Both the position numbers and the translations under genes were made by a program. A stretch of 64,000 nt of DNA from Candidatus Latescibacterota bacterium. Its GTDB lineage: Bacteria; Latescibacterota; UBA2968; UBA8231. Numbering within the stretch: the first letter of the stretch is position 1; each line of letters starts with the position of its first letter. The notes under the pieces are model-generated. The model did not search any database. It was not told where the DNA came from and saw only the letters and a program-made list of their open reading frames with translations. The stretch spans positions 5,455,427 to 5,519,426 of the forward strand of contig CBDETK010000013.1 in NCBI GenBank assembly GCA_965242865.1, in the 5' to 3' direction. Below, in pieces: positions 10,429 through 34,930 of the stretch.

Positions 10429-13173
10429 CTACGATCGCTCGACGCGCACCTGATCCTTCAGGTCGAGATCGTCGAGCACCTGCCGCAGCTCGGTTTCCAC
10501 GGTCTGGGCAAATTGCGCGGGGACGCGCACGGTGAATTCTATGCCGACGCAAAGGTCTTCTCCAGAGCGCAGCTTGGGCAGCAGTTTGGTTCCCAAGCGA
10601 TTCCAGACTTCGGGCGGCACAACGCCGGTGAGCCTAAGCGCGGTCTTTTGATTGGCTGGACTCGGGGCCGGGGCCGGCTGGGGTGGAGGCTCGGGGCGCG
10701 GCGCGGGTTCCGGTTCTGGCTGGGGCGCATCTTCAGGCGCGGCTTTGAGTGCTTGGGCCTTGGCTTTGGCTACCAAGAACACGTTCTCCTCAAACACCAC
10801 ATCCTCGGCAGCGACCGCCTCTTCATACCACAGCCGATTGAGGTTGGCGCCGGAGGCTAGGCCGAACTCTCCCCGCGCCACAAACTCAACGATCTTCTGA
10901 CGCAAGATCGCGTCGGGATCGATCAGCCGCGTCAACGCGCCGTTCAAAAAACTCTGGCGCAGGCTCGTCAGCGGCCACGCCCCCGCGTCTTTGAACGCGG
11001 CCGGCCAGTGGCGGTCGATGTAGCCGGCCCCCACGTTCTCGTTGAGCAGGGCCTCGGCTTTCAACGCACTGATGATCCGTCCGCAGAGGGTTTGGCTGGC
11101 ACTGGCGTGGCCGGCTCCGAGGTCGATGATCTTGAGCTGGTGCTCTTCTCGATTGTCCGCCAGCGCGACAAAGCGGTAGCCAGCCCATACCTCGTCCTTG
11201 GCCGCTTCCTCTGCGTCGCGAACGTGGGCCTGAAGCTCGGCGCGGTCCGCACGGTCGTATTCTGAGCCGAGGACGCCCTCGGCCACCTCGTGCGCGACGC
11301 GCTTCCAAGCGAGCCATAGCTCGACCTTGTCGCGCAGTTCGCGCCCCGGCTTCCGCGCACACCAGACCAACGAACCGCGGTACAGCCGGGGCGCGGTGCC
11401 CCGCTCCTGCGTCCAATCGCCAATGCGCTCGATCACTCGGTTGCCGCTGGGCCATTCCTCATCCGGGTCGAGGACGATGAGGGCCAAGCGCGGCGAATCC
11501 GGGACTGCGGTGCTGTCTTGGGGGAAGAAGCTCGTCGGCAGGGTCGCACCGCGGTTGAACTCTTCCTCGACCAGCTTGCGGATCGCCGGCTTGATCTCGG
11601 CGGTCTCGTCGAGCGACGCCCGCCGGTCGCTGACGACCTTGCGCAGGGTCGCTTGGTGGTGGATGCGGTAGCCGTCTGTGCCGACTTTGCGGATAAAGAA
11701 CCCCGACCCTTCGAGGGCGGTCGCCGCGCTGTCAATCGTCGTGGTTTCGACTTGGGGCTCCCCGAGCGCAAAGCGCAATTCCGGCAGATGGGCCACCTTA
11801 TCTACCTGCCCGCCAGAGGACTCAAACAGGATGGCCGTGCCCACGCGGCGGTGGATGTCGCGCAACGCGCCCGTGGCATCGGCATCGAGCGGTCTGGCCC
11901 GGGCCGTCAATCCCGCGAGGTCGGCGTCAATCGCCACGTCGAGCCGCGACTCGCCCAACTGGCCCAAGACCACAGCGCGGAACTCGGGCACATCCAACGG
12001 CGCCGCCCCCAGCGTAATCAGCGGCTCGGTGCGCGCCTTGGTAAATTGCTCGCGGGCGGCCCAAGAAATCCATTGCGCGAGCATGGCCAGCGCCCCGCGG
12101 GTTTGCTGGAACTGAGTGAGCGCGCGCCACTTGCGCTGAAAGACCGAAAGGGTGGCCGGATGAAAGGGATAGCACGCGGCAAATCGGCCCCGCAAAAACT
12201 CCTTGGCCTTGGCTTCGGTCGTCGCGGTATCGACCGCCAGCCACTCGGCCGGTAAGCGGGCAGTGCGTTCAAAGCACCAGTCCGCGTACGTCTTGGCGAC
12301 GCGCTTGCGAACGCGCTCGCTGCCGAGGTCCTCAAACAACCGCCGACGCACCACTTCGCTGATCTCGGATTCGTCGTTGGCAATTAGATCGCGGGCGACG
12401 CGGCGCACCACCTTGGTGATTCGGTCTTGCCACTGCTGATCCCAATCGGTCATTTCGACTTGGCTGCGCGGCAGGCTGATGACCGCGGCGGCCTGCGTGC
12501 TGCCGGTGACCGCGACGGTCAGGTTTTGTAGGAAGGCGTGGAAAGGCTCGGCTAGGTCGCGGTGGCGGTTGACGAAGTTCAGGACTTCATCGAACAACAG
12601 CAGCACGGGTGCGTCCGCCGCGGCGAATACGTTGGCGAGTGCCTCGGTGCCCGGTGGCGTGGTTTTTGCGGTCGCCCCGAGCGCGGCCACGCCCGTTTCG
12701 CCGGCCAGTTGGCGGGCTAGATCGATCCAAGGCGTCTCTCGGCCCTCTGCCGGGTCCCAAGCATTGCCGACGAAGACGCCGACGCGGGCGGGCGGAGCTT
12801 TGGCAAGCCCCGCCTCGTTTAGGAGGTCTGCCACCCCGAGGAACTGGGCGGCCTCTGCGCCGGCCTTGGCGATGTGATACAGGGAAGCGAGGGTATGGGT
12901 CTTGCCGCCGCCGAATTGGGTGACGAGCGTGAGGACCGGGGCTGTGTTCTCGGTCTTGCCGGAAAGTCGCCGGAGGACCATGCCGGCGTGTTCCTTTAGG
13001 GCGCGGGTGAAGCAGGTGCGCGAAAAAAATTGCGCGGGCTCGCGGTAATCGGCCGGAGCGGTTTGGGCGACGATTTGCTCTAGGGCGATGGCGAACTCGT
13101 CCGGGCTGAACGAGCGGCCTTCGCGCACTTCCCTGCGGAGCGTTACGATTTTGTACCAAGGGTCGAGGGCCAT
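10429..13173 (-). CDS. DUF499 (COG1483-type) AAA-like ATPase, normal partner of the DUF1156 methylase
   Basis: 914 aa. The N-terminus 'MALDPWYKIVTLRREVREGRS...FAIALEQIV' and Walker A 'QFGGGKTHTLASLYH' are characteristic of DUF499 proteins. A Pro-rich linker (PEPEPAPRPEPPPQPAPAPSP) precedes a small C-terminal domain. Confidence 0.82.
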   Translation of the reverse strand: MALDPWYKIVTLRREVREGRSFSPDEFAIALEQIVAQTAPADYREPAQFFSRTCFTRALKEHAGMVLRRLSGKTENTAPVLTLVTQFGGGKTHTLASLYHIAKAGAEAAQFLGVADLLNEAGLAKAPPARVGVFVGNAWDPAEGRETPWIDLARQLAGETGVAALGATAKTTPPGTEALANVFAAADAPVLLLFDEVLNFVNRHRDLAEPFHAFLQNLTVAVTGSTQAAAVISLPRSQVEMTDWDQQWQDRITKVVRRVARDLIANDESEISEVVRRRLFEDLGSERVRKRVAKTYADWCFERTARLPAEWLAVDTATTEAKAKEFLRGRFAACYPFHPATLSVFQRKWRALTQFQQTRGALAMLAQWISWAAREQFTKARTEPLITLGAAPLDVPEFRAVVLGQLGESRLDVAIDADLAGLTARARPLDADATGALRDIHRRVGTAILFESSGGQVDKVAHLPELRFALGEPQVETTTIDSAATALEGSGFFIRKVGTDGYRIHHQATLRKVVSDRRASLDETAEIKPAIRKLVEEEFNRGATLPTSFFPQDSTAVPDSPRLALIVLDPDEEWPSGNRVIERIGDWTQERGTAPRLYRGSLVWCARKPGRELRDKVELWLAWKRVAHEVAEGVLGSEYDRADRAELQAHVRDAEEAAKDEVWAGYRFVALADNREEHQLKIIDLGAGHASASQTLCGRIISALKAEALLNENVGAGYIDRHWPAAFKDAGAWPLTSLRQSFLNGALTRLIDPDAILRQKIVEFVARGEFGLASGANLNRLWYEEAVAAEDVVFEENVFLVAKAKAQALKAAPEDAPQPEPEPAPRPEPPPQPAPAPSPANQKTALRLTGVVPPEVWNRLGTKLLPKLRSGEDLCVGIEFTVRVPAQFAQTVETELRQVLDDLDLKDQVRVERS

Positions 13174-13301
13174 TTTCAGTTCCTATTGATTTGTTATCTG
13201 CCGTAATTTGGCGCGAAGATCGTCCAAAAACGCCTTTAGCGACGAATCGCTCTTCCCTGCTCGATAGAAGTCCATACCCTCTACCAGTTCAGAAGCGAAG
13301 A

Positions 13302-14546
13302 TTACTCATCAATGAGTCCGCGCAGTATCAGGCTTTCAAACATACCATCTTCCATCTGGCTGGCGAGTGCCGCCGCGATTTCTGTATCCTGAAACAGCGA
13401 GCCTGTAACATCGAAGGGGTCGATCACCGTCCCCTGATTCGCAAGGCGGACATTGAAGAGGCCAATATCGCTTGATTGTGTCTCGCGCTTCATCTTCATG
13501 ATTGCATCGACAAACAGTGGTGAATGCGTGGTGACAACAACTTGGCCTCGACGCTCCTCGACAACAGAGAACAGAAGCCGAGCGATCAGTTCGAGCCGGC
13601 GTGGATGAACGCCGTTTTCGGGTTCCTCCAGTGTTAGGAGAGAGCCGCCCCAAGGGTTCGCAGCGATGGTGCAGAGTGCGAGAACCCGCAGCGTTCCTTC
13701 AGATAAGATGCGAGAGGAATACTCTACGCCTGCCTGCTGGACCAACAGATCCAAGGTGCCGCGTCGCTCGTCTAGTTCGACGTTTAGCGTCTCAATGCTC
13801 GGTACGATTGAGCGCAATGTTCGCAGGACGGCAGCAAAATACTTGGGGTGCTCAGCTCGGAGCTTATATAAAAATGACGCGATGTACTCGCCGTGAATGC
13901 CAATATCCAACACGTCGGCCGGGGACTCCTCCGCCCGCATCTGCATCCGTGGCTCGAAATAGTACGTGCGCCAGTTCAGCAACTCTGAACGGACTTGCTC
14001 TAGCCAAGGGTATCCGTTGCCGCCCAAGCTCCGGTCAGACAGAATAGAGTGGTTCAAGCCGACCGGCTCCTGTCGCGGATGAGCCGGCTTGCCCTTGCGG
14101 CGGATGTGGAAGTTAGATCCCACGCGCTCAATGGCCGCGGCCCCCTTCGGGTTTCCGGCCGCACTGAGTTGAGCCAAATACTCGTCGGCAACGCTGAGTT
14201 GTCCCGATCTAAAATCTATTTCCGGCTCGACGCGATATCGATAACCTCCTTTCTCAGTAGCCAGATCGGCCTCCAGTGTAAACCGTGCAGATTGTTTCTG
14301 AAGCAAAGCGGGTAGTCCTTCCGCAGAAAAAGAGAATGCTTCAAAGGCATAACCGCGTACCGGAAACGATCCTCCGAGTGCGTCGAATAGCGTACGTGCG
14401 TTGCCCATCCACGAAAGAGCTTGGATGGCGTCCAGCAGATTGCTCTTGCCAACAGCATTAGGCCCAAAAAGGACCGCCAAACGGGGCAGGTCGACCGTGA
14501 CTTCGCTGAGCGACTTGAAGTTGCGGACGGTCAGTCTCTTGAGCAT
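13302..14546 (-). CDS. ABC/AAA_15-AAA_21-type ATPase (SMC-like head), full length
   Basis: The ATG at 14546 is preceded by AGGAGAG. 'LKRLTVRNFKSLSEVTV', Walker A 'GPNAVGKSN', signature-like 'LSEGTLRVLAL', Walker B 'LLTLEEPENGVHP' and D-loop/H 'VVTTHSP'. Confidence 0.8.
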   Translation of the reverse strand: MLKRLTVRNFKSLSEVTVDLPRLAVLFGPNAVGKSNLLDAIQALSWMGNARTLFDALGGSFPVRGYAFEAFSFSAEGLPALLQKQSARFTLEADLATEKGGYRYRVEPEIDFRSGQLSVADEYLAQLSAAGNPKGAAAIERVGSNFHIRRKGKPAHPRQEPVGLNHSILSDRSLGGNGYPWLEQVRSELLNWRTYYFEPRMQMRAEESPADVLDIGIHGEYIASFLYKLRAEHPKYFAAVLRTLRSIVPSIETLNVELDERRGTLDLLVQQAGVEYSSRILSEGTLRVLALCTIAANPWGGSLLTLEEPENGVHPRRLELIARLLFSVVEERRGQVVVTTHSPLFVDAIMKMKRETQSSDIGLFNVRLANQGTVIDPFDVTGSLFQDTEIAAALASQMEDGMFESLILRGLIDE

Positions 14547-14625
14547 TTGCGCTCTCCTATCGCGGTATCCCCCAGCGACTCCAATTTCGTTACCCAGCCA
14601 TTGAACCGAAGGCATTTAGCGCGAA

Positions 14626-15195
14626 TCACGGGCGTCCTCCGAGCAGGTTCTTCTGCCAGAGCTCGCCCGGTGTGAAGTTATCGTCGAGCCATACCTGATA
14701 GTCATCTGGGGATAGCTTGCGAACTTCAGTACGACCGTCCCGTAGCTCTAATACGAAAATCTCGTCGAGACCGAACGCATCAACCAGCAAGGGCGATTGT
14801 GTTGCCACAATGACCTGCCTGTCCTCGGCGAGGGACTTTATCATACCCCCGACCAAAGCGATAGCGGCCGAACGGTCGGGCTGAGCACGGGAAAGCATGA
14901 ACCGATAGTCGCCATAGCCCTCATCGATTCGCAATCTAACCTCGGCCTCTATGCGTGGCGTCCGTCGGCTGCCGCCATGTAATTGGTCATCGGCTCCTCC
15001 TTGGCTACCGATGAACTCGGCGAGCCTGCGATGCTCGAGCATCCAACTCAGCATTTCAAAGAAGCGAATGAAATTCGACTTGCCTGAGCCGTTGGCACCG
15101 ATTAGGACCGCCGCCTTGGGAATTCCCGCAAGCTCAACATCGGCCAACGACCGGAAGCCGCGGATGCGGACGGATTCGATCATTGTTGAGTCCAT
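14626..15195 (-). CDS. short ABC-type ATPase paralog lacking the central region (Walker A and C-terminal H-loop only); possibly a decayed gene
   Basis: From the ATG at 15195: 'MIESVRIRGFRSLADVEL', Walker A 'GANGSGKSN' and 'LSWML', then directly 'VIVATQSPLLVD...GELWQKNLLGGRP'. At about 189 aa it has no ABC signature or Walker B segment, compared with 414 aa for its downstream neighbour. Confidence 0.55.
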   Translation of the reverse strand: MDSTMIESVRIRGFRSLADVELAGIPKAAVLIGANGSGKSNFIRFFEMLSWMLEHRRLAEFIGSQGGADDQLHGGSRRTPRIEAEVRLRIDEGYGDYRFMLSRAQPDRSAAIALVGGMIKSLAEDRQVIVATQSPLLVDAFGLDEIFVLELRDGRTEVRKLSPDDYQVWLDDNFTPGELWQKNLLGGRP

Positions 15196-15205
15196 TTCGT
15201 TCCTT

Positions 15206-15238
15206 TCACCTCGGTGCCGCCAAGAGCATGGCGTCGAT
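15206..15238 (-). repeat. relic D of the DUF1156 methylase 3' end
   Basis: The minus strand reads ATCGACGCCATGCTCTTGGCGGCACCGAGGTGA (IDAMLLAAPR*). The genuine methylase end is CTCGACGCCATGCTGCTGGCGGTGCCGAGGTGA (LDAMLLAVPR*). That is 5 mismatches in 33 nt by manual alignment. The relic lies 10 nt upstream of the ATG at 15195. Confidence 0.7.
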
Positions 15239-15242
15239 GTAG

Positions 15243-15719
15243 TTATTTCTGGCATAGATCTCGTCGTCCAAGTAGTCTCTTGTGGGTAGGCGTGAAACGC
15301 TGGTTCGTACGTGTGGTGTAGATCTTGCCTCGTGGTCGGTTTATCAGATCCCTGTTCTTGAAATCCTCGCCTAGTCTCTTCTCTCTTTCACTGCTCTCAT
15401 TAGTAAACAATAGACGCGCTCCACTGATTTGGGCTAAGGCGATGATGTGCGAATCGTCTGAAACGCATTTACCCTTGATCGCCTCTGCTTTAGCGTTGAC
15501 CTGATCTTCGTTCATGGTCCTCATTTTGCCCGCTTCTCCTAACGTACTCGCCCATTCTCTAAATGTTGGCGAACCGTCTTTAAGTTCTTCAAGTAGCTTG
15601 CCGCCGACTATCAAGCGTTCTGATCCTGCGTTGATCCAATCATAGAATTTCTCGCCTGCCTCAGATTGACTGGGACCGAAAACTTCATTGGCTACATTCG
15701 CATCAACAATTGCACACAT
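15243..15719 (-). CDS. PIN-like (DUF4411-like) putative nuclease
   Basis: 158 aa. 'CAIVDANVANEVF' is a first-strand Asp, and 'VSDDSHIIALAQISGARLLFTNES' is a PIN-like D...hhA.A...hhT.E pattern. It starts 4 nt after the upstream ATPase stop. Confidence 0.5.
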   Translation of the reverse strand: MCAIVDANVANEVFGPSQSEAGEKFYDWINAGSERLIVGGKLLEELKDGSPTFREWASTLGEAGKMRTMNEDQVNAKAEAIKGKCVSDDSHIIALAQISGARLLFTNESSEREKRLGEDFKNRDLINRPRGKIYTTRTNQRFTPTHKRLLGRRDLCQK

Positions 15720-15722
15720 GGC

Positions 15723-17081
15723 TCAACTCCTTTCAGCCTTTCGTCTCTTCCAAATAGACCGTTCCATTTCATTGATGAAGAACTGCCGATATACCGGAGG
15801 GGCATTCAGGACGTTTCCCTCGGCGTCTATTTCTAGTGAATGAATATGTACGTCGAGGTCGCGTCGCTCGAAGAAGAGAATGGAAACGTCTTCGGGTTTC
15901 AGGTTCCCCTCGCTGTCGCGAACGTCCATGCGCACCCGGCTGAGCAGGTGATCGCTATGCGTCTCAATCACCAATTGACGCTCCGGCCCGGCAATTTGGC
16001 AGAATAGACTGCCCAGAGCGGCTTGGGCACTGGGATGGAGATGTACTTCCGGTTGCTGGAGCAGAAAAATGGACGGGGCGTCTGAACGCAGTAACTCGGT
16101 GACGACAGGGAGCACTTGGCTCACTCCATAACCTACGTCAATCAAGTTGCGTTGCGGCCCCTTAACCCTTTTCCCGTATTTTCGGATCTGCACCTGAAAA
16201 GGCTCGGTCTCCTTCTTGTCGAAAGACTTGACCGAGATTTCGTCAAAAAGGCCGGCGTCTTGACCAAATTTTTCGAGCGCGTCCTTGAGGGTTTCCCATT
16301 GCTTTTTATGCTGGAAATACAAATTGGACAGGTACATGGGAATGTAGTCGCCTTCGGGGTCCTGTGTCGGGAGTGCGGGGTCGTAGGTACGACGTGGCTT
16401 GGAGCGAACAGGTGCGCTGGCATACGGTTCGGATGCGTGAAAGAGAAAACGGCCTGATTGGCTAGCGTATATAACCTCTTTGATTTTTTTTAAGTCCGCT
16501 TTTGTAGGAGCCGCTGCACCTGCTAGTGCGTTCCATTGATGATTTTCTTCGAGCGTTTCTGTAAAATGCCAAATAAGCGACAAAAGAGAAAGTCGATCGT
16601 CCCGACTCCAATCCAGAAAGTGGACGGCCTCATCAGATAGATGATGCTTCCAAGCCCCCCTTTTTGTCCCGAAGCAAACCTCCCTTTGCGAGAGACGATA
16701 TTCGATCCACGTATCCTTTTGAGAAAGGCGTCTGCGCTCCGGCACCGGGACGCTTCCCTTCTTTTTGAAGATCGCTTCAAAATGGAACGGTTCTGTGTCG
16801 CTACGTATCTGAGTAGTGAATGCAAATCCCGCCTCAAAAGCATCTGCTCGACCACCCCGTCCTCGGTAATGGGCGATCTCGTCGAAGCTGCCGAGGTCGT
16901 AAGGCTCTTTCTTAAAATCGGGGTTTTTCTGCCGGTAGGCGACATCCCAGAGTGCCCGGATCAGGGCCATGAACGAGGTCTTGCCGGTGCTGTTCTCCCC
17001 GACAAGTAGCGTCAGTGGTGCTAAACGGGCGGTCTGTTTTTCGCGGAAGCAGCGAAAGTTTTTGATCGTGATTTGGTCCAT
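15723..17081 (-). CDS. AAA_21/DUF3696-like ABC-type ATPase
   Basis: 452 aa. 'ITIKNFRCF', Walker A 'GENSTGKTS', 'VGYGVSQVLPVV' (remembered as a DUF3696-type signature), Walker B 'IFLLQQPEVHLHP' and 'VIETHSDHLL'. Confidence 0.82.
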   Translation of the reverse strand: MDQITIKNFRCFREKQTARLAPLTLLVGENSTGKTSFMALIRALWDVAYRQKNPDFKKEPYDLGSFDEIAHYRGRGGRADAFEAGFAFTTQIRSDTEPFHFEAIFKKKGSVPVPERRRLSQKDTWIEYRLSQREVCFGTKRGAWKHHLSDEAVHFLDWSRDDRLSLLSLIWHFTETLEENHQWNALAGAAAPTKADLKKIKEVIYASQSGRFLFHASEPYASAPVRSKPRRTYDPALPTQDPEGDYIPMYLSNLYFQHKKQWETLKDALEKFGQDAGLFDEISVKSFDKKETEPFQVQIRKYGKRVKGPQRNLIDVGYGVSQVLPVVTELLRSDAPSIFLLQQPEVHLHPSAQAALGSLFCQIAGPERQLVIETHSDHLLSRVRMDVRDSEGNLKPEDVSILFFERRDLDVHIHSLEIDAEGNVLNAPPVYRQFFINEMERSIWKRRKAERS

Positions 17082-17102
17082 GCGATTCCCTTTTTTGTGC
17101 TT

Positions 17103-17235
17103 TTAGCGCGGCACCGCTAGTAGGAGGCGTTTTTCGTTGCAGCCTTGAGGATAGGGGGCGGATAGGGCGTTGGCAAGGCGGAGGAAGTCCTCGGCACAAA
17201 TCAGCGTCCGCAGCCTCTAAGGCGATGGCGGATGA
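17103..17235 (-). pseudogene. relic B of the DUF1156 methylase 3' end (about 130 nt, decayed)
   Basis: The minus strand reads ..DFLRLANALSAPYPQGCNEKRLLLAVPR* against the genuine ..DFLRLANALSALYPQGCNEKRLLDAMLLAVPR*. A 68-nt core has 3 mismatches and includes a 34-nt identical run. There are in-frame deletions and an upstream in-frame TAG. The relic lies 21 nt upstream of the ATG at 17081. Confidence 0.85.
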
Positions 17236-17277: not shown

Positions 17278-17529
17278 TCACGAATCCGCAATCGATACAG
17301 CGGCCAGTGTATCTTTGGCAATAATGGCATGCGCGTAGGCCGTGCAGGCGCGAATGTCGTCTGGTTCCAGTTCGGGGTAATCCGCTAGAATGGCCTTTGT
17401 CGTCACGCCCTGTGCCATCAGGCTCAGGATGAGTTCCACTGAAATTCGCATGTCGCGAATGATGGGCTTGCCGCCAAAGACTTCCGGGCGGGCGGTGATG
17501 CGCTTGAGCAGTTCGGGATTAGGGATCAT
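17278..17529 (-). CDS. DUF433 (COG2442) antitoxin-like protein
   Basis: 83 aa. 'ITARPEVFGGKPIIRDMRISVELILSLMAQGVTTKAILADYPELEPDDIRAC' is the typical DUF433 pattern. Confidence 0.85.
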   Translation of the reverse strand: MIPNPELLKRITARPEVFGGKPIIRDMRISVELILSLMAQGVTTKAILADYPELEPDDIRACTAYAHAIIAKDTLAAVSIADS

Positions 17530-17553: not shown

Positions 17554-17602
17554 CTACCTCGGCACCGCCAGCAGCATGGCGTCGAGTGAGGCGTTTTTTT
17601 CG
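17554..17602 (-). repeat. relic C of the DUF1156 methylase 3' end
   Basis: 17556-17586 is identical (31 nt) to 18865-18895. The minus strand reads ..SLDAMLLAVPR* with a TAG stop. The relic lies 24 nt upstream of the DUF433 ATG at 17529. Confidence 0.85.
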
Positions 17603-17615: not shown

Positions 17616-17843
17616 TCATCGGTTCTGCGTGATGAGCCGACTTCTGCTTTCCTCGCGTGGCTTTGAGGGCGGCTTGGTTTCAAAGGGATTACTTACCCGA
17701 CTGCCGCTATCTTCCCACACTCCCAATTCTTCGAGTTCTCGGCGCATTTGTAGCGCCTCTTCGACGATCTTAGGATCAACCGCCGGATTCTTTGCGATCT
17801 GCTCTTTGGTGAGCATGGGCACAAGTAGGTCTTTTTTTAGCAT
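17616..17843 (-). CDS. small hypothetical protein (75 aa) downstream of the protease
   Basis: ORF starting 11 nt after the protease stop, with similarly lowered GC. Charged and helical-looking, with no motif. Confidence 0.4.
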   Translation of the reverse strand: MLKKDLLVPMLTKEQIAKNPAVDPKIVEEALQMRRELEELGVWEDSGSRVSNPFETKPPSKPREESRSRLITQNR

Positions 17844-27688: not shown

Positions 27689-28924
27689 TCACGACGGTTT
27701 CGGCTCCTTCCACAAGCGGACGATGAAGCGGTGCTCTTCCTCGATCAGGTCCGGCTCAGTGCCGTTGTGGTCTCGCATAGCTCTAATAATCCGATTGCGT
27801 ACACCCATGCCAAAATGCTCAACATAGCCGTAATCTCGAAGGATTTCTTTTAGCAATTCATTTCTGGCGGCCCGTAAACCTTCCTTCATCTTCTCTACCG
27901 TCACTCCATTAGGAAGACGCCCGGGCGAGATTACTTCTAGGCGATCACGATACAAAGAGACTTCGATGTCTGTGCCGACGAGCGTATAATCGCGGTGTGC
28001 AACCGCATTCACGATGGTTTCACGAACCGCGGCCCGTGGAAGCGACTTCTTGCGGCGTCTCCTTCCACCATCGAGCCACGCGACAGAGCCCATGTTACGG
28101 GCTACGAAATCTACCGCTCGGTCAATGACCCCCTTATCCATAACACTTTTTTTTGCCGATAACATCGGAACGAGAGGACCTCGAATCAGTTCTTCATCTA
28201 CAGTATTGTACGCCTTTTCATTTTCTGGGAACGCCGCCGCCGTAATGCCCGACTGCGGCAGCCTGCGGTTCGGGTTCTTGCCGAAGAGGAGCAAGCCCGC
28301 GACTGTTCCGACAGTCGTTCCCGCCGCTTCCGCAAGAAGATCAATGCTCACAAGAACTCGACGCCATTCTTCGGTATTCTGCGCCGTTGGCACATCGCGC
28401 TTCTGGATAACACGAAAGTAGTTCCCGATTCGGTCCAGATCGAGTTCCTCCAGTCCCGTCTCAAGTACGGGCTTGATGTCATAGCGCATGATACGGGCTG
28501 ACTGGTAGAGGCGTCCTTCTTCATCGCGACTTGCCTCTCGTGAACTGCTACCGACCCGCACGAACGTCCACCAAGCTTTGCCGCGTTTAGCCTTGTACGG
28601 CTTATCCGGCGCATCGCTAGGAAGAGATACTATGCCGACGGTTTTCCCCTCTCCCCAGTCCACGGTCTCCCAGTAGGGGATCGTCGCCGGACGGATGTGG
28701 GTACGCGCAGTTTCCATCACCCATTCTTCGACTTTGCTCGGCTCGCAGGTGAGACCGGAAACCGAGCCATCGTCCTCGACGCCGAGGAGAATGTGCCCAC
28801 CTTCTAGGTTGAGTAGGGCGGCGATTTCAGTGGCGAGTCGTTCGGGGCGAACGTCGGAGCGCTTGAACTCCACGCCGGAACTCTCGCCATTGCGGATTAG
28901 TTCGATCAAATCGGTTTTGTTCAT
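27689..28924 (-). CDS. COG2865-type protein (AlbA_2/Schlafen-like N-domain plus HATPase_c_4-like and wHTH C-terminal part), copy a
   Basis: 411 aa. 'LIRNGESSGVEFKR' (AlbA_2 N-terminus) and 'VNAVAHRDY...ISPGRLP' (C-terminal module). It starts 8 nt after the PHP-ATPase stop. Confidence 0.78.
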   Translation of the reverse strand: MNKTDLIELIRNGESSGVEFKRSDVRPERLATEIAALLNLEGGHILLGVEDDGSVSGLTCEPSKVEEWVMETARTHIRPATIPYWETVDWGEGKTVGIVSLPSDAPDKPYKAKRGKAWWTFVRVGSSSREASRDEEGRLYQSARIMRYDIKPVLETGLEELDLDRIGNYFRVIQKRDVPTAQNTEEWRRVLVSIDLLAEAAGTTVGTVAGLLLFGKNPNRRLPQSGITAAAFPENEKAYNTVDEELIRGPLVPMLSAKKSVMDKGVIDRAVDFVARNMGSVAWLDGGRRRRKKSLPRAAVRETIVNAVAHRDYTLVGTDIEVSLYRDRLEVISPGRLPNGVTVEKMKEGLRAARNELLKEILRDYGYVEHFGMGVRNRIIRAMRDHNGTEPDLIEEEHRFIVRLWKEPKPS

Positions 28925-28932: not shown

Positions 28933-31644
28933 TCAGAATCCGTATTTCCGGCGGCGACGCTCAAAAGCATCCTTGCCACCTTCGAGAATCTCCTCAACCA
29001 TTTCCCGCACCGGGTGTGCATCAATGGAGCCTATATGTTTGGGATCAATGTAGGCATTCCCCTCGTCCCCACCTCCAGTGGCGGTGAGGCCAACGATCAG
29101 TTCGGCGTCCCCAAGCACCAAGATGTTGGCATTGTGAGTCGAGAAGACGAATTGGCGACGGCGTTTCTCCTCGCGCATTCTGGGAACCACCCCTTCGGTG
29201 ATGAATCGGTTGTCGAGGTCGTCCTCCGGCTGATCGACGATGAGCGGCGCATCGGACTCTAGCAGGAGGAGCAGCAACACAGCGGTCGCTTTTTGGCCCG
29301 TTGAGAGCGCTTCGAGTGCTTGCCATGACGGCGGTTTGCCGGAAGGAGCCGTGTTGAGCTGGATTGTGGTCGCGGGGGAAAGTTCCAACTCTTCAATGTG
29401 CATCAAAGTCTCGGCCGACGCCTCGGCAAGCCGTTGCGCTTGGGCTGGTGGAATTTTGTAGGTTCGGTGAACGGCATCCGCGCCTGTCCGACAGCTATCG
29501 ACGAATTGCGGCAGCGAGAAGTTCTCCGCTCGGGCGAGGATGGCTAAGGCCTCGGAGAGACGGCCGCGGATCTCATCGCGGAGCAACCGGATCAGCAGCT
29601 CGCGGTTGCCTGCGGCGGTGACCGCCACTTGGACGCGGGGGCGCAGTTTCTTGCTGACTGCTTGCGCGGCTCTGTCCAAACTCCTGAACTCCTCCGCTTT
29701 GATATCTTCCCATTCGGCGAGCAGCATACGCCGTCGTTCAAGGAGTTCTTTTTCTAACCGTTTCAATAAGAACTTGCGCTCCCCGAGCGGGCGAAGGTTC
29801 TCGATTTCGCGCCTAAGACGAATGAACTCTTGCCCGTCTATTGCCGATTTCTGAAGCTCGCGCAGAATTTTCTCATAGTCGGCTTGGACCTTTTCTTGGC
29901 ACTCGTTCCAGCGAGCGCGGATTTCGGCGATTCCTTCATCTGCTTGCTTTAGTGCTTCTGCAAGTTGACCCGCCAATTTATCGAGATTAGTGCTCAGGCT
30001 TTCCAATATGTCATTGCCGCCCGCAAGAATTTTCTTACCCGGTAGATCTCGGAGTGCCCTTTCAGACAAGAACACCCGGTCTATCGGGAGCTCTTGGCGG
30101 AGAAGATCGAGGCATTCGCGGAAATTCTGTAGGCGCTCGGGCATCGAATTGAGCACCCGCTCCTCGCGTACGAGCAAGCTCTTTTCTCGCAGGCGATCTT
30201 CAAGACCGACTTCTCGAAAGCGTTCTAGGGTCTCCTCAAGTCTTGGCAGGGCGGCTAGACGCTCCTCGATTTGCTGGAGCTCGGTGCATACCTCTACTAT
30301 GGACCGCCGCGTCTTCTCGAGTTCTCGGCGGAGATCGGCCTTGCGCCGGGCCGAGGAATGGTCTCGCTCGACGAAGCGGTCGAGAAGGCGCGTGAGCTTT
30401 TCGGGACTCTTGGTGAGTTCGGAAATTTCGTGCTGTCCGTACACCTCGACGCGAGGGAGTATCTCTTTTGGAAGCAGGTTCGACATATTGCCGTCCTCCT
30501 CGCGCACCACGGGCGGGTTTGGAATGGTCCGCTCAATGCGGTACTCGCGTGGCGCCGGGCGGTCACAGCGCACGAGAAGCGAGACTTTCGTCCCGCTGCG
30601 GAGCACTTGGCGCACGATTCCTTTGTGGGCCTTGTCGGCCTCCTCGCCGATAGGCTCCAATCCGAGCGCGTAGCGCAGGCTCTCGATGATGGTTGATTTG
30701 CCGGTGCCGCGCCCGCCGACTAAGACGTTCATGTTCGGATTGAAGCGAATGGCTGCACCATCCAGAAAGCCACCTTCCCAAGTCAGGGAAACGAGTTCGG
30801 CGTGGTCGTCGGGCGTGGAGTCGCTGTTCAGCCGAATTCTCGACCCGGGATCGAGAAAAGCCTGCCGTAGCCCCTCAACCGTGATCTCGGACATCTTGAT
30901 CCAGCATGTAGCCGAAGGGTCTTTCAGATCGCTCGGCTTAACGACATCCTTCGCGTTGATCGCGGCTACGGCTAGATTTTCATCTGCGGGATGGTTTCGC
31001 TGATAGTCTGGATTCTCGTTCTGGACAATTGGACGTACCTCGGGGGGCAGGCTGGCGACAGGCCCAGGGATCTGGATCGCGAGCAGGTCTTTAGCACGCC
31101 ATGCGTTGATCCGCGCTTGGCCTTCGAGTGCTTTGAAAAGCCCTTTGGCGTTTGTCACGTGCGCGGCGATGGCGACTCCGCCCTGTTGCTCGACCATTGT
31201 AAGTACCTTGTCGAACGGCTCGCTCGACAAATTCGCTGAAGGGCCAGTCTTTCGGATTCTAAACTCGCCTAGAAACCGATCCAAACTGTTCTTATCAGCA
31301 TTCGGCGGATAGATGCACAGGATGTGAATGCCTTCAGACGAAGAGAGCTCGAAACCGGGGAATATCGTGACGTTGGTATGTTGGGCGGCTTCTTGGAACG
31401 CGGCTACTCCGCTCGCGTCGTTGTGATCGGTGATGGCGAGCACGGAGACGCCGATTTCGACTGCCTGCTCGACAATGGCTTTCGCGTGCTCGCGAGCATC
31501 GCCGCTGGTTTGCTGGCCTCGGAAGGTTGCGCCGTAGCCGTGTGGGTTTACTTGGAGGGCGCATCGATGAAATACAGCACCCGCTGGCAACCCGCTGGCC
31601 TTGGCGATAGGGTCCTTAGCCCTCACACTCGACATGGTCTCCAT
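28933..31644 (-). CDS. PHP-domain phosphoesterase fused to an SMC/ABC-like coiled-coil ATPase (Ppl-like / TrlF-like architecture)
   Basis: 'FHRCALQVNPHGY', 'AITDHND', 'GFELSS' and 'IAAHV' (PHP motifs). Walker A 'GGRGTGKST', a long coiled coil, then 'LSTGQKA', 'LIVDQPEDDLD' and 'VFSTHNANI'. The start at ATG 31644 (METMSS) has GAGAGGG upstream. The longer track start 31731 overlaps the neighbouring relic. Confidence 0.85.
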   Translation of the reverse strand: METMSSVRAKDPIAKASGLPAGAVFHRCALQVNPHGYGATFRGQQTSGDAREHAKAIVEQAVEIGVSVLAITDHNDASGVAAFQEAAQHTNVTIFPGFELSSSEGIHILCIYPPNADKNSLDRFLGEFRIRKTGPSANLSSEPFDKVLTMVEQQGGVAIAAHVTNAKGLFKALEGQARINAWRAKDLLAIQIPGPVASLPPEVRPIVQNENPDYQRNHPADENLAVAAINAKDVVKPSDLKDPSATCWIKMSEITVEGLRQAFLDPGSRIRLNSDSTPDDHAELVSLTWEGGFLDGAAIRFNPNMNVLVGGRGTGKSTIIESLRYALGLEPIGEEADKAHKGIVRQVLRSGTKVSLLVRCDRPAPREYRIERTIPNPPVVREEDGNMSNLLPKEILPRVEVYGQHEISELTKSPEKLTRLLDRFVERDHSSARRKADLRRELEKTRRSIVEVCTELQQIEERLAALPRLEETLERFREVGLEDRLREKSLLVREERVLNSMPERLQNFRECLDLLRQELPIDRVFLSERALRDLPGKKILAGGNDILESLSTNLDKLAGQLAEALKQADEGIAEIRARWNECQEKVQADYEKILRELQKSAIDGQEFIRLRREIENLRPLGERKFLLKRLEKELLERRRMLLAEWEDIKAEEFRSLDRAAQAVSKKLRPRVQVAVTAAGNRELLIRLLRDEIRGRLSEALAILARAENFSLPQFVDSCRTGADAVHRTYKIPPAQAQRLAEASAETLMHIEELELSPATTIQLNTAPSGKPPSWQALEALSTGQKATAVLLLLLLESDAPLIVDQPEDDLDNRFITEGVVPRMREEKRRRQFVFSTHNANILVLGDAELIVGLTATGGGDEGNAYIDPKHIGSIDAHPVREMVEEILEGGKDAFERRRRKYGF

Positions 31645-31654
31645 TTTGGCCCTC

Positions 31655-31906
31655 TCATTCGTCCCGTGTTTTCCATTTTTCAGAAGTCTTTTGACCTTCC
31701 CTAACTTCCACCGGCTGCTTGAGCGCGTCAACGCTCAGATAGTAGTGAGCTACCTTGGTGACCTCGTGCCACGGAAATCGCACGGGGTCTCGGATCGGCT
31801 CTTGAAGCTCTGGCGCACTCGCGCAGTGGGTCACCACGTAGAGCCAGTAGCAGTCGCGGCGATCCTCGGCGACGCGCCGCTCGTTGGGCGTCAGCAGGAT
31901 AAGGAA
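31655..31906 (-). pseudogene. C-terminal fragment of a PD-(D/E)xK / DUF3883-like nuclease domain, no usable start
   Basis: Manual translation directly after an in-frame TAA (31907-31909) gives FLILLTPNERRVAEDRRDCYWLYVVTHCASAPELQEPIRDPVRF... This matches the 'f.LT.NE...A.....Y.LYvV.....P.l..I.DP' tail I remember for DUF3883-type domains. The upstream catalytic part is absent. Confidence 0.35.
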
Positions 31907-32095
31907 TTAGGGCTTTTTCGTTGAGCCAAGCGGTCGCCTCGGGCCGTGCGGCTATCGGCGGCCGATTTGTGAAATCCTCAATGAACCGCAAGAATACCTC
32001 TATTTTCTCGACGTGCATCACACGAAAAGTATCGGCGTAATCTGAGCAACCTAGACACATCGTGCATCTTCCCCGATCTAGCTGTTTTGAAAGAG

Positions 32096-33646
32096 TCATC
32101 TGAAGCTTATAAAGCTGAAGCGGTTTCGTTTCAACTCAGCCAAAAACGCTTGGCCTTCGCCTCTCAGCGTTTCCTCGCGCCACACTTGATAGATCAGGAG
32201 CCAGAAGCGGTCCTTCTCTTGGGTCTCCATATCCTTCAACTTATTGGCGCGTCTTCGTATCGCCTCCCGAATTCTCTTAATCCTGTAGCGTTTTGCGTAC
32301 TTTAGTAGTAACACATCCGAGAGGCAGTCATCTATCGCGATGACCTCTATGAACTTGTCCTCCAGCGTACTCAACTGAAGGTTATGTTTGAGCGAGTAAT
32401 ACAAGGCATGGGCGATGGCATCCGAATAGATTCTCTGAATTCCAATCACTAGGAGATGTTCAATAAAATCAAGAATGACTTTCTCGATTCCATCATAGCG
32501 ATGCTTGTCGAACACGTGCTTGTCTAAGATTGGAGCAAGATATGGATATAGCAGTGCCAAGTTGATAGTCTCCTGAACGAAGAGACGCTTAGCTCGGCTA
32601 TCGAGACTCGGAGGCACCATCTTGATAGCGTAGTTCAAAACGGCATAGGTCTCCGCTCCATGCGCTAGTTTCAGTGCCAAGTCCAGGAGCGAACGAACCT
32701 TCCCGAAGCGAACGGTTGCGCCTTTGGCTGGCAATCGGAAGTTGTTCAACTCTCGAACCCAGTCTTTTTGGATTGGAAGTGGCATCGGCAAGATTTCAGT
32801 CTTACGGTCGTTCAGAACAAGCTCGTATTCGCGCAGTTGCATCCCAAGGTCATGGATGAATTTCTCAGCTTCGTCATAGGTTTTCGCGTAAAAGGTGTAA
32901 TCGTCAATATAGCGGCTAAACCTCTCGTATCCCTTCTTGGTCATCTCATAATCAATTCTGGTCAGTATTATCTCTGAGACGACGTTGGATGAGTGTGGCC
33001 CGATCAAGATCCCATTGGTTTGTCCATCTCGGATACCCTGGGTGGCTTTGTCCAGAAGATTTCCTGCCAATAAGACCGAGCGGCACTTTTTCGACTTACT
33101 ACGACCATGTAGGGCCCATGGGATTGAATGAGTGTAGATGCTGGGAAAGCAATTTGATATATCAGTGTAAACGACATAATGCGCTCCCATCATTTCGCGA
33201 ATGTCTATTTCTTCATGCTCGAAGTGTTCCTTTCCCTTGTAATTCATTCGGAAAACACGCTCACTTGACGTTTTCCGAACAAAGAGACGGCTCACGGGTG
33301 TCTTCGGTTTTGCGCAGTGCCCTTTAATTGTCGCCCAATGCTGCTTCAGGGCTAGACACTGGACAAGGTGGCTTTCGGGATGGGGAACCCCCATCTGACG
33401 AGGGATATTGACGGCGTGTAGTGGTTCGTAGCGGATGAAATCGTGCTTTCGTTTCTTAAAGGTCTTATCCAAATTTTTTGAGTCTTTTTCTGTTGTTGGC
33501 TTTAGAAGAATGTTCGGGGCATAGGCTGAAAGCCCTTTGGAGGTAAAACATGGCGGAAGTTTTTCACTGAATAGGCCATAGTCAACCAAGCCTATGAATG
33601 CTTCGTCCTCCGAAAGGCCGAGCCCTGTCGTTTGTCTCCTTACCAT
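32096..33646 (-). CDS. reverse transcriptase, stand-alone Abi/UG (defence-associated) type with a helical C-terminal domain
   Basis: 516 aa. 'YTDISNCFPSIYTHSIPWAL' (RT motifs 1-2), 'GILIGPHSSNVVSE' (motif 4) and 'RYIDDYTFY' (YxDD catalytic motif 5). There is no maturase or endonuclease domain, and only 45 nt of upstream spacer. Confidence 0.86.
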   Translation of the reverse strand: MVRRQTTGLGLSEDEAFIGLVDYGLFSEKLPPCFTSKGLSAYAPNILLKPTTEKDSKNLDKTFKKRKHDFIRYEPLHAVNIPRQMGVPHPESHLVQCLALKQHWATIKGHCAKPKTPVSRLFVRKTSSERVFRMNYKGKEHFEHEEIDIREMMGAHYVVYTDISNCFPSIYTHSIPWALHGRSKSKKCRSVLLAGNLLDKATQGIRDGQTNGILIGPHSSNVVSEIILTRIDYEMTKKGYERFSRYIDDYTFYAKTYDEAEKFIHDLGMQLREYELVLNDRKTEILPMPLPIQKDWVRELNNFRLPAKGATVRFGKVRSLLDLALKLAHGAETYAVLNYAIKMVPPSLDSRAKRLFVQETINLALLYPYLAPILDKHVFDKHRYDGIEKVILDFIEHLLVIGIQRIYSDAIAHALYYSLKHNLQLSTLEDKFIEVIAIDDCLSDVLLLKYAKRYRIKRIREAIRRRANKLKDMETQEKDRFWLLIYQVWREETLRGEGQAFLAELKRNRFSFISFR

Positions 33647-33691
33647 AGAAATCTCCTTTGAGGACTGTCGCCTTCAAGTGACCGAGGCTGC

Positions 33692-34930
33692 CTACCCTGT
33701 GCTGCGCTCTTTCCACAGCCGAACCGTGAAGCGGTAATCCTCCGCTATCAGGTCCGGCTCGGTGCCGTTGTGGGCCAACATGCCGGGAATGATCTTGTTC
33801 CGCACGCCCATTCCACGCGCATCCACATAGCCGTAGTCGCGCATCACGTTGACTAGCGTCTGATTGCGGGCGTAGCGCAGTCCCAAGCGCATCCCGGCCG
33901 GCGTCACCGTGTTGGGCAAGCGACCCGGGCTGACCACTTCGAGGCGGTCGGAGAATATGACCAGCATGATGTCCGTTCCCACGATGCTATAATCGCGGTG
34001 TACTAGGGCGTTGGCCACGGCCTCGCGCACCGCTTCTTCGGGAAATTCCCAGCGGTCAATCCGCCGCGCCCCTTCCAAGTAGGCGGAAGGCGTCGTATTG
34101 CGCCGCACGAAATCCCACGCCTTATCTACAAGCCCCAGCTTGACAAACTCCCCATCCTCGGGGTCGCAGAGCGGAACCATAGGACCGTTGAGATCCTCGT
34201 CCGCACGGGTTGCATAATCCGGCTCCCGGCCTACGTAGCAAATCGCGCGAATGCCCGATTGCGGAAGAAACCGCTTGGGGTTCTTGCCGAACAGGAGCAT
34301 TCCGTCCACGGTTGCGACCATCCGGCCCGCTGTTGGGGTCGCAAGTTCGAGGTTTTGCAGCAGCCTTTGCCATTGATCGACATCGCTTGCCGGCGGAACG
34401 CTGCTGCCCAGAACGCGGCCAAAGTAATCGCGCAAGTGCCGCTGGCTGAGCGAGTCGATTGCCGTGCCGAGGACGGGCTTTAAGCCGTAACGGAACAGTC
34501 CCCCTTGTAAGTAGAGCCGTTCTTCTTCCTCGCGGCCAGCGGCTCGCGTGGTAGTACCGACGCGTACCTGAGTAACCCAATTTTCTCCGCGCTTAGCCTT
34601 GTACGGCTTATCCGGCGCATCGCGAGGCAGAGATATAATGCCGACGGTTTTCCCCTCTCCCCAGTCCACGGTCTCCCAATAGGGAATCGTCGCCGGCAAA
34701 ACGTGGGTACGCGCCGTTTCCATCACCCATTCTTCGACCTTGCGCGGCTCTCGCATGAGACCGGTAACCGAGCCATTGTCTTCGACGCCGAGGAAAATGT
34801 ACCCGCCTTCGAGATTGAGTAGAGCCACAATTTCCGCGGCGAGTCGTTCCGGGCGAAGATCGGCGCGTTTGAACTCCACGCCGGAGTTCTCGCCGCTGCG
34901 AATCAGTTCGACTAAGTCGTCTTTGTTCAT
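33692..34930 (-). CDS. COG2865-type protein (AlbA_2-like N-domain plus HATPase_c_4-like/wHTH), copy b
   Basis: 412-aa paralog of 27689..28924. I count 19 differences in the first 114 residues of the two track translations. Confidence 0.78.
   Translation of the reverse strand: MNKDDLVELIRSGENSGVEFKRADLRPERLAAEIVALLNLEGGYIFLGVEDNGSVTGLMREPRKVEEWVMETARTHVLPATIPYWETVDWGEGKTVGIISLPRDAPDKPYKAKRGENWVTQVRVGTTTRAAGREEEERLYLQGGLFRYGLKPVLGTAIDSLSQRHLRDYFGRVLGSSVPPASDVDQWQRLLQNLELATPTAGRMVATVDGMLLFGKNPKRFLPQSGIRAICYVGREPDYATRADEDLNGPMVPLCDPEDGEFVKLGLVDKAWDFVRRNTTPSAYLEGARRIDRWEFPEEAVREAVANALVHRDYSIVGTDIMLVIFSDRLEVVSPGRLPNTVTPAGMRLGLRYARNQTLVNVMRDYGYVDARGMGVRNKIIPGMLAHNGTEPDLIAEDYRFTVRLWKERSTG

Follow-up and report, generated by a model that had tools for sequence, protein, structure and literature searches.

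A 64-kb stretch of Candidatus Latescibacterota DNA (the window) carries, at positions 10429 to 34930, a heavily loaded and decayed locus of the Hma defence system. An earlier note, made from the sequence, had described this block as a defence island. Our analysis revealed that it is instead a single conserved operon, an orthologue of the Hma or Type-1 DUF499-centred BREX-related (BR) operon, anchored beside a DUF4432-like gene and with core genes of host-like G+C content (GC). As a defence island the block is ordinary and is explained by the known embedding of genes in Hma systems; what it provides is an unusually legible record of turnover, with fragments of core-gene ends marking most of the well-mapped boundaries between its cassettes. 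We consider it likely that this is a chromosomal, vertically maintained Hma operon that was loaded with co-oriented cassettes through recombination between alleles, with no recombinase of its own, and whose core has decayed.

The block is an orthologue of a conserved Hma operon

The window was annotated from a map of its open reading frames (ORFs) together with Pfam and PADLOC profiles. The block was found to hold about 20 credible genes, all of them on the minus strand, with no credible plus-strand gene inside; unless stated otherwise, every feature of the block described below lies on the minus strand. With the flanking DUF4432-like gene (34946-36058), which is also on the minus strand, about 21 genes are co-oriented, an arrangement with a probability of about 2^-20 if orientation were random. 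Strands alternate beyond the borders of the block. The strictly minus-strand block of the earlier note is therefore confirmed by the ORF map and extends into the flank, and its unidirectionality follows from the embedding of the cargo in an operon.

The core of a Hma/Type-1 DUF499-centred BR system consists of a DUF499 ATPase, an N6-methyltransferase and a helicase (NAR 2026, PMC12839542). In the window the DUF499 AAA+ ATPase, HmaC (10429-13173), is an intact ORF with a GC of 0.656 (PADLOC HmaC, 1.6e-93, match spanning 1-842; Pfam DUF499, 5.6e-13), and it shares 81 to 89% aa identity with HmaC of complete systems in the clade. The DUF1156 N6-adenine methylase, HmaB, is present as a pseudogene (18863-21774; PADLOC HmaB, 3e-61 and 3e-54 on its two halves). 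HmaB homologues are abundant at 72 to 87% identity, and their contexts led to the orthologous locus in relatives, which we label L033 to L043. Eight same-clade loci (from seven chromosome-scale genomes and one scaffold) have the order DUF4432, HmaA, cargo, HmaB, cargo, HmaC. In six related genomes (L033 to L037 and L041) the locus occupies the same chromosomal position, as judged by the DUF4432/FG-GAP flank and the core order: divergent FG-GAP/TPR genes, DUF4432, HmaA of about 1,140 aa, a variable region, HmaB, a second variable region and HmaC, usually followed by convergent adh_short and FAD-oxidase genes. L038 and L040 have the same core order; there the fetched stretch starts inside HmaA, and the flank lies beyond it. 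Full-length HmaA (1136 to 1150 aa) is encoded in L033, L034, L036 to L038 and L040.

The DUF4432-like gene is the conserved upstream neighbour of the operon and is host-like in composition. Its product matches Pfam DUF4432 below the curated cut-off and is 84 to 92% identical (aa) to that of the syntenic gene in L033 to L037 and L041. In relatives the DUF4432 stop abuts or overlaps the HmaA start.

Core-gene relics mark cassette boundaries

The suggestion of the earlier note that cargo boundaries are marked by duplicated pieces of resident genes was borne out by four repeat pairs of 88 to 98% identity. These are 26075-26202 and 21647-21774 (88%, E = 5e-40), 17122-17189 and 18894-18961 (96% over 68 nt, E = 7e-25), 17556-17598 and 18865-18906 (98% over 43 nt, E = 7e-13), and 15206-15237 and 18863-18894 (88%, E = 3e-4). 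Its statement that att-like direct repeats are absent holds in part: repeats do flank cargo blocks, but they are core-gene fragments and not att sites. No att duplication bounding the island was found, the repeats of the window being relics of genes in its interior and not at the island ends.

Downstream of HmaB, all of the older cassettes (3/3) are preceded by a fragment of the HmaB C terminus. Each of these tail relics ends in ...DAMLLAVPR or a variant of it and has its own stop codon (TAG, TAA or TGA), which a short spacer separates from the next start. Relic no. 1 (17554-17598) ends in ...LDAMLLAVPR and TAG, 26 nt upstream of the DUF433 gene. Relic no. 2 (17100-17215), of about 40 codons with its own TAA, stands about 21 nt upstream of the next ATPase gene; it has two small in-frame deletions (translation RLRTLICAE..DFLRLANALSAPYPQGCNEKRLLLAVPR*) and has orthologues in L037 and L040. 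Relic no. 3 (15206-15250) ends in ...IDAMLLAAPR and TGA, 10 nt upstream of the HEC-01A start. Among the relatives, L035, L036, L038 and L040 carry one HmaB tail relic each and L037 carries two; L033, with a single cassette, has none. The relics are 32 to 138 nt long and 84 to 99% identical to active tails, and their left ends differ, falling at positions 13, 30, 52 and 107 of the last 150 nt of HmaB, which makes a site-specific process unlikely.

Each cassette type found downstream of HmaB occurs directly after an active HmaB in some genome. HEC-01A follows active HmaB in L033 and L034, and its 10-nt junction is common to relic no. 3 of the window, active HmaB of L033 and a relic in L036. The HEC-03-like ATPase gene follows active HmaB in L043 with a spacing of 17 nt (17 to 21 nt when the window is included), the protease gene follows HmaB in the window, L037 and L041, and DUF433 (87 to 90% aa identity) follows active HmaB in L035, L036, L038 and L040.

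The ends of other genes have left relics as well. A 42-codon relic of the HmaB 5' end with an in-frame TAG (26075-26202), 88% identical to 21647-21774, lies in the window, and HmaB head relics also occur in L033, L035, L036 and L038; in the window and in L038 the relic directly follows a HEPN gene. The HEPN stop overlaps the HmaB start in L034, L035 and L037, which is the native HEPN-HmaB junction, and the start of the head relic in the window overlaps the HEPN stop. A relic of the HmaC 5' end (head) stands before the second ATPase cassette of L034 and L038, L033 contains a DUF4432 tail relic, and the window contains a DUF4276 tail relic at 14573-14626.

At the HmaA end, a two-piece relic of the 3' end of the gene for the HmaA SNF2 helicase with its NOV_C domain (31658-31962) runs into the annotated Ppl start. 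In a tblastn search, residues 1068-1148 of HmaA from L037 matched 31900-31658, the last 81 codons, at 84%; a second short fragment lies upstream (31962-31903), and tblastn gave no other HmaA match in the 64-kb window. The 123-aa ORF that holds the relic (31728-32099) has no family match. This ORF had previously been read as a nuclease-tail relic; it is actually the C-terminus relic of the helicase. L041 has, at the same end, an HmaA remnant with its own tail, then COG2865, DRT4, a second HmaA tail and Ppl. In the window, the neighbouring gene COG2865-b is a mosaic by blastn, its 5' 600 nt being L035/L036-like and the remainder L041-like, a pattern that would fit loss of the HmaA remnant through a double crossover between alleles.

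The series of relics, which we refer to as the relic ladder, appears to be the new element here; embedding and co-orientation have already been published (Payne et al. 2024). The ladder is not described in that report, although no dedicated literature search was made for it.

Relic no. 2 contains a weak sigma-70-like match (17176-17148, minus strand; TTGCCA, a 17-nt spacer and TATCCT) that may be an internal promoter but is not above chance, and the active HmaB tail has TACCCT where the relic has TATCCT. On co-transfer of the C-terminal half of HmaB with the downstream cassette, sliding identity was uninformative, since it was low only in a central block that fits a nested target-recognition domain.

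The core has decayed while the cargo is largely intact

HmaB is split into ORFs of 390 and 625 aa: near 20735-20750 some 25 nt are deleted, which removes the codons for HYRLPND and shifts the frame. The gene shares 87% aa identity with P0001, an intact HmaB homologue. Sequencing error as the source of the split was ruled out, since the lesion is a multi-codon deletion and not a homopolymer slip. The DUF1156 methylase of the earlier note is thus present, but broken. With HmaA reduced to a relic and HmaB frameshifted, the host Hma system is therefore predicted to be dead in this genome, HmaC remaining intact. Similarly, L041 has an internally deleted HmaA remnant and an independently broken HmaB, and an intact HmaB accompanies each full-length HmaA. 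Loss of the restriction component would be expected to release a methylase from constraint, which agrees with this pattern. A locus without HmaA, such as that of the window, would probably not be called Hma by PADLOC. Despite the decay of the core, the cargo is largely intact, including DRT4, Ppl, SIR2-STAND, the MNT-HEPN pairs and the HEC-03-like pair.

Comparison of the window with L033 to L037 revealed that the centre of HmaB (alignment columns ~1050-1950) is hypervariable, with 45 to 70% nt identity between alleles against 83 to 92% in the flanks. The variable centre would fit a swappable nested target-recognition domain (TRD), and a nested variable TRD of the methylase belongs to the published description of BR systems (PMC12839542). 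Extra fused domains occur in some HmaB homologues, namely GIY-YIG in L043/P0061 (L043 11510-14800) and PF08719 in P0120.

Gene content and composition of the cargo

About 12 genes sit upstream of HmaB and about 6 between HmaB and HmaC; the stretch between the upstream neighbour of the HmaA relic and HmaC comprises some 18 genes or relics, each of them on the minus strand. PADLOC matches among the embedded genes are Drt4, Ppl, HEC-01A (twice), NsnB/HEC-03B, PDC-M63A and PDC-S09. The gene list and order of the earlier note were matched by Pfam and PADLOC, apart from the identity of the relic, the integrity of the methylase and one ABC ATPase.

In order of transcription, the first cargo gene is COG2865-b (33692-34930; Pfam AlbA_2 [Schlafen] and HATPase_c_4), whose product is 59% identical (aa) to that of COG2865-a. 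It is followed by an intact type 4 reverse transcriptase gene, DRT4 (32096-33646; GC 0.47; Pfam RVT_1), with a full-length match to PADLOC Drt4 (PDLC02178, 1.8e-152, residues 11-514 against profile positions 12-501 of 506). Beyond the HmaA relic lie an intact Ppl gene (28933-31731; Pfam PHP and AAA_21/AAA_23, the latter for its ABC ATPase; PADLOC Ppl, 9.5e-42), COG2865-a (27689-28924; Pfam AlbA_2 and HATPase_c_4; 92 to 95% aa identity with L037 and L041) and two tandem MNT-HEPN pairs (26199-27652; Pfam NTP_transf_2/Polbeta and HEPN). The pairs, 27338-27652/26956-27351 and 26581-26925/26199-26741, are 79% identical to each other in nt. After the HmaB head relic come the SIR2-STAND cassette (22583-26060; gene 22643-25807, 1054 aa; Pfam SIR2_2 and nSTAND_NTPase5) and a DUF6932 nucleotidyltransferase gene (22062-22502; Pfam DUF6932, 4e-25; PADLOC PDC-M63A) with a 69-aa ORF (21856-22065).

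Downstream of HmaB lies a gene for an SDH/ClpP-like serine protease (17855-18748; Pfam SDH_protease, 1.4e-16) with a 75-aa ORF (17616-17843). Relic no. 1 then precedes DUF433 (17278-17529; Pfam DUF433, 3.8e-22), an orphan antitoxin-like gene. Relic no. 2 precedes the HEC-03-like pair, an ABC ATPase gene (15723-17081) and a PIN-like gene (15243-15719), with matches to PADLOC NsnB (1.3e-50) and HEC-03B (1.5e-30) and a weak match to Pfam PIN. Relic no. 3 precedes an internally deleted HEC-01A ABC ATPase gene (14626-15195; PADLOC HEC-01A, 7e-51 in two stretches) and the last 18 codons of a DUF4276 gene (HEC-01B, TOPRIM; 14573-14626; tblastn and blastn). The final cassette is a second, divergent HEC-01A-type ABC ATPase gene (13302-14615, 437 aa; Pfam AAA_21, 5.6e-30; PADLOC HEC-01A, 5e-50). 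The two ABC ATPases listed in the earlier note are thus both found, one of them (14626-15255) as a deleted HEC-01A with a DUF4276 relic. Residues 5-128 and 130-209 of the deleted protein map to L033 12942-13319 and 13863-14102, an in-frame internal deletion of about 180 aa. The DUF4276 fragment is matched at 78% by residues 189-206 of DUF4276 from L036 (tblastn) and by L040 18261-18322 (blastn). The arrangement is best read, from these alignments, as a deleted ATPase followed by an 18-codon relic of its lost partner.

The wide swings in base composition that had been noted by hand were confirmed gene by gene. Host genes of the window have a GC of 0.62 to 0.66 and a GC at third codon positions (GC3) of about 0.8, and cargo has a GC of 0.34 to 0.60. 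Across the block, per-gene GC runs from 0.34 to 0.66: 0.336 in SIR2-STAND (GC3 0.26), 0.466 in the protease gene, at least 0.63 in HmaB and 0.656 in HmaC. A search of the 64-kb window for tRNA and tmRNA gave none, and an Rfam scan of it gave no family, hence no retron RNA, group II intron or riboswitch. Integrase and transposase Pfam domains were absent from its main ORFs (most ORFs of at least 70 aa). Genes overlap or are tightly spaced, and the intergenic gaps have no terminator-like sites. When the high-GC part was scanned for promoter and terminator consensus sequences, the number of matches lay within the shuffled expectation or below it; the promoter-like matches in the SIR2-STAND gene are AT-driven and uninformative.

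Cargo is shared and turns over among relatives

Cargo turns over between relatives, yet most cassettes are shared at core-like divergence. The set differs in every genome compared, in keeping with the turnover anticipated by the earlier note, and an identical complete gene set was not encountered. All genes are co-oriented save two insertion sequence (IS) ORFs in L040. Upstream of HmaB, relatives carry MNT-HEPN pairs, COG2865, Ppl, YhcG, FitA/PIN, an OLD-like ATPase, Metallophos plus HATPase, a C5-methylase, an ORC/Cdc6-like protein, TIR, SIR2-STAND and IS elements; their HmaB-HmaC slot holds HEC-01 (ATPase plus DUF4276), DUF433 plus DUF5615, ATPase plus PIN, and the protease.

The closest relative is L041, at about 90% nt identity. 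Cargo proteins of the window are 88 to 95% identical (aa) to those of L041 (DRT4 89%, Ppl 89%, COG2865-a 95%, protease 93%; the COG2865-b mosaic, 68%), and flank proteins are 86 to 92% identical (DUF4432 92%, FG-GAP 92%). Ppl shares 82 to 89% aa identity with Ppl of L037, L041 and L043, where it follows the same HmaA-tail junction, and the protease shares 87 to 93% with those of L037 and L041. DUF433 has a DUF5615/PIN_10 partner in relatives that the window lacks. SIR2-STAND is 87% (nt) and 86% (aa) identical to L040 6204-9681, which has a GC of 0.33 and occupies the same slot. L033 and L040 each have a 67-aa homologue of the 69-aa ORF, and the segment 22112-21771 is 91% identical to L033 4314-4655. 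Lineage-specific cargo is limited to DRT4, DUF6932 and one ATPase. DRT4 was found in L041 (89% aa), its fragment L042 and L043 (76% aa) only; DUF6932 was found in none of the sampled relatives; and the 437-aa ATPase is unique to the window among them, shares 24 to 33% aa identity with their ATPases and has no TOPRIM partner. Because the operon is conserved and its cargo shared at core-like divergence, the earlier reading of many independent acquisitions is only partly right: the cargo is heterogeneous and turns over, but most of it is shared at housekeeping-like divergence.

Immediately upstream of DRT4, COG2865 is present in all three full DRT4 loci (L041 8769-11548, L043 7083-9865 and window 32096-34930), and in L041 and L043 the two genes overlap at the COG2865 stop and the DRT4 start. 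COG2865 plus DRT4 may thus be a two-gene module rather than a single-gene DRT4. The two SIR2-STAND copies, at GC 0.33 in two 63%-GC genomes (window and L040), are only 87% identical; either the composition of the cassette is not adjusting to that of its hosts, or a low-GC pool has supplied it more than once.

No mobility gene was found among the main ORFs of the window, in line with the earlier note. IS-type DDE transposases (DUF4096 plus DDE_Tnp_1) do occur in the Hma slots of relatives, at L035 7016-7784, L038 5830-6648 and L040 13283-14157, and therefore mobility genes are not absent from the locus at the population level. The L040 IS interrupts the DUF433/DUF5615 pair.

Borders and neighbouring loci of the window

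The left flank of the window (desaturase-PspA-EutN-IspH-ManC) is syntenic with that of relatives identified through ManC; the ManC-like gene has 85 to 90% identical orthologues in about 22 Latescibacterota species represented by metagenome-assembled genomes (MAGs). Most of these relatives carry a conserved block of 252/513/338/825-aa ORFs downstream of ManC that is not in the window, and none of them has island genes, or homologues of the right flank, downstream of ManC. The left border (10338-10428) joins the block to the convergent ManC-like gene. According to blastn end points, the sequence shared with the orthologous loci reaches 26 nt beyond the HmaC stop, to about 10403. The adh_short/FAD-oxidase genes follow HmaC in L034, L036, L037 and L038, and in L033 behind an extra COG2865; they are not in the window. 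Because the ManC-side block is missing from the window and no island genes lie downstream of ManC in relatives, the border at about 10403 appears to be a rearrangement joint. Exact-protein look-ups of two flanking genes gave no match; the called starts probably differ.

After ManC, L007, L016 and L023 have low-GC inserts of unfamiliar genes instead of the 252/513/338/825-aa block, with no informative Pfam match and no integrase in them, and L013 has an inverted copy of the left flank. The region downstream of ManC lies at about 11.1-21 kb in each of the L001 to L024 loci. Within the conserved left flank of the window, 5487-6570 (plus strand) is a low-GC patch (0.46 to 0.54) comprising a split ParA/CbiA-like ORF (5487-5747 plus 5698-6018) and a 181-aa ORF (6025-6570) that is present in some related genomes only. 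On the other side, 43015-52214 (plus strand; GC about 0.59) is a second candidate defence locus. It encodes a MkoA-like SF1 helicase (43015-46215; PADLOC 1.1e-73; Pfam AAA_11/AAA_12), two proteins without a family match (46225-47328 and 47286-49229) and a PD-T4-6-like Ser/Thr kinase (50868-52214; 2.5e-20).

A proposed mechanism and its alternatives

We propose that the gaps between Hma core genes act as slots that collect other defence cassettes, and that cargo would be exchanged when alleles of the locus with different loads recombine within the population. Incoming DNA would be anchored by homology in a conserved gene (HmaA, HmaB, HmaC, DUF4432 or COG2865), and an illegitimate joint slightly inside the terminus of that gene in the recipient would close its other end, a process of homology-facilitated illegitimate recombination or, equivalently, unequal crossing-over. 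Each new cassette would come to lie beside the core gene, and the older one would be displaced outward, keeping a relic of the core-gene end. The direct repeats created in this way (43 nt at 98%, 68 nt at 96%, 128 nt at 88%) could in turn delete or circularise cassettes. Co-orientation would be inherited from the donor allele, and the cargo presumably uses transcription of the operon. Under this scheme the COG2865-DRT4 module may have entered HmaA and destroyed it, HmaB decaying afterwards. A more general version of the idea, which we put forward tentatively and which may well prove wrong, is that the termini of Hma/BR core genes (~30-140 nt at the 3' end of hmaB and hmaA, and ~130 nt at the 5' end of hmaB and hmaC) are recombinase-free docking points, that cassettes travel between alleles with a copy of the adjacent core-gene end, enter through one-sided homologous recombination and displace older ones outward, and that the relic ladder is an ordered record of their acquisition.

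The abrupt drop of GC to 0.33 over 3.5 kb, in a sequence that comes from a MAG, raises the question of whether low-GC foreign DNA was stitched into a high-GC genome in a chimeric contig. Given that the independent assembly L040 has the same SIR2-STAND at 87% nt identity, with the same GC and at the corresponding place ahead of the 67-aa ORF and HmaB, and that most other junctions are common to independent assemblies, we regard the chance of such an artefact as negligible. A classical mobile genomic island, driven by an integrase or an integrative and conjugative element whose mobility module was lost or lies outside the window, would account for the heterogeneous composition and the synteny break at the left border, and a distant compact Hma locus (L039) does lie among transposases, a tyrosine integrase and serine recombinases. 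However, 64 kb without integrase, transposase, tRNA or att pair, core genes that are host-like in GC and no more diverged than housekeeping genes, and above all the orthologous loci at one position beside DUF4432/FG-GAP in six related genomes largely refute this idea, which we find hardly credible.

Two further explanations address the relics themselves. An integron-like, trans-acting recombinase could insert promoterless cassettes in one orientation at a site that it recognises within the final ~40-140 nt of hmaB (likewise of hmaA); the same tail sequence would then stand before each cassette, orientation would be uniform and the newest cassettes would appear beside the core gene, all of which is seen. 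What speaks against this is that the left ends of the relics vary, that the relics are in-frame coding fragments that include the stop, that other ends (HmaB head, HmaC head, DUF4432 tail and DUF4276 tail) have left relics too, and that no recombinase gene is conserved across the 10 clade loci. No attC-like element was noticed at the junctions read, though no systematic attC search was made. Together these points make an integron-like process very unlikely. Alternatively, the relics may be functional elements (a promoter, ribosome-binding site or coupling signal) kept by selection before each cassette. Their retained stop codon and native spacing to the next start, their high identity to active tails and the weak -35/-10 match in relic no. 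2 point in this direction, whereas, given their range of lengths, any element common to all of them is confined to the last ~30 nt, the idea does not account for head relics or for those derived from other genes, and promoter-like matches are not above shuffled expectation. As an explanation of the ladder we judge it unlikely; it is also compatible with the recombination model and so not a true alternative to it.

Loading of a vertically maintained operon by recombination between alleles remains the reading that we prefer, and several observations weigh against it. Breakpoints were inferred from eight loci of different species, and no event was directly observed. Gene conversion, or selection on a tail element, could keep the relics at 84 to 99% identity to active tails; candidates for such an element are an internal promoter or a translational-coupling signal, promoter-like sites not being enriched overall. 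Co-transcription is suggested by tight spacing and terminator-free gaps only, and the defence activity of each cassette, DRT4 included, is predicted from profile matches. The low GC of SIR2-STAND, combined with 87% nt identity, is odd for long vertical residence. The SIR2-STAND event may have been either a gain here or a loss in L041, the active HmaB head of the window being closer to L041 (120/128 matches) than the relic head is (114/128).

Significance and relation to known systems

Embedding in Hma, BREX, DISARM and type I restriction-modification (R-M) operons is a recently recognised principle and is used for discovery, guilt being assigned by embedding. On this principle the SDH protease plus 75-aa ORF, DUF6932 plus 69-aa ORF, COG2865 plus DRT4, and SIR2-STAND are defence candidates. 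Of 1,485 Hma systems, 62.7% have embedded genes, which are co-oriented with the host system in 96.7% of cases and are mobility genes in 3.1%; HEC-01 and HEC-03 were defined as families of Hma-embedded candidates (Payne et al. 2024, bioRxiv 10.1101/2024.01.29.577857). The authors of that survey stated that the significance and origin of the embedding were left to be explored. Hma/BR loci have been counted in 3,592 taxa (PMC12839542). Together with its 10 relatives (9 of the same clade), the locus offers a series of natural variants whose well-mapped junctions can mostly be read: they show relics with stops and spacing, variable breakpoints, mosaic anchors, and a methylase that decayed independently once the helicase was lost. 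A systematic scan for relics makes the origin of embedding testable. Heavily loaded or decayed scaffolds are probably missed by rule-based callers, since the PADLOC-based survey allowed at most three embedded genes per slot (Payne et al. 2024) and the helicase is missing here. Jumps in base composition alone do not date acquisitions, as SIR2-STAND, shared at 87% identity and still at 33% GC, illustrates. If true, docking at core termini would be a general route into Hma, BREX and type I R-M operons that needs no mobility gene, and it would explain how a cargo array can outlive its host system.

The nearest known counterpart of the locus is Hma itself (Payne et al. 2021, 2024): its HmaB and HmaC are orthologous to those of complete loci, and its nested, co-oriented cargo includes HEC-01 and HEC-03 and no recognised mobility gene. 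It differs from the systems surveyed (Payne et al. 2024) in that HmaA is deleted, HmaB is frameshifted and the load is far above three genes per slot. Embedded systems are also known in type I R-M and BREX loci, such as PrrC in EcoprrI and BrxU in pEFER (cited in Payne et al. 2024). The window resembles these, and chromosomal defence hotspots and islands that lack mobile elements, in having variable cargo between conserved flanks and defence genes inside a modification-based system; unlike in hotspots, its anchors are the core genes of the defence system itself and not housekeeping flanks, and the host system has decayed. As in integron arrays, a unidirectional stack of mostly promoterless cassettes has repeats at its boundaries and, apparently, its newest members next to the anchor, but there is no IntI (no Phage_integrase match in the window), the repeat boundaries vary and the repeats are coding fragments. 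In the orphan toxin/immunity arrays that lie 3' of rhs and cdiA, new modules arrive with a piece of the conserved gene, displaced modules keep a fragment of it, and the modules are co-oriented with no dedicated recombinase. The locus would share with them the arrival of modules with a piece of the anchor gene, displacement that leaves fragments and the lack of a dedicated recombinase; it differs in that the displaced units are independent defence genes rather than alternative C termini of the anchor, and in having relics at both anchor ends. Finally, homology-facilitated illegitimate recombination was reportedly described by de Vries and Wackernagel in 2002 in naturally transformable bacteria. 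There, as proposed here from the anatomy of the junctions, a one-sided homologous anchor and a nearby illegitimate joint insert foreign DNA.

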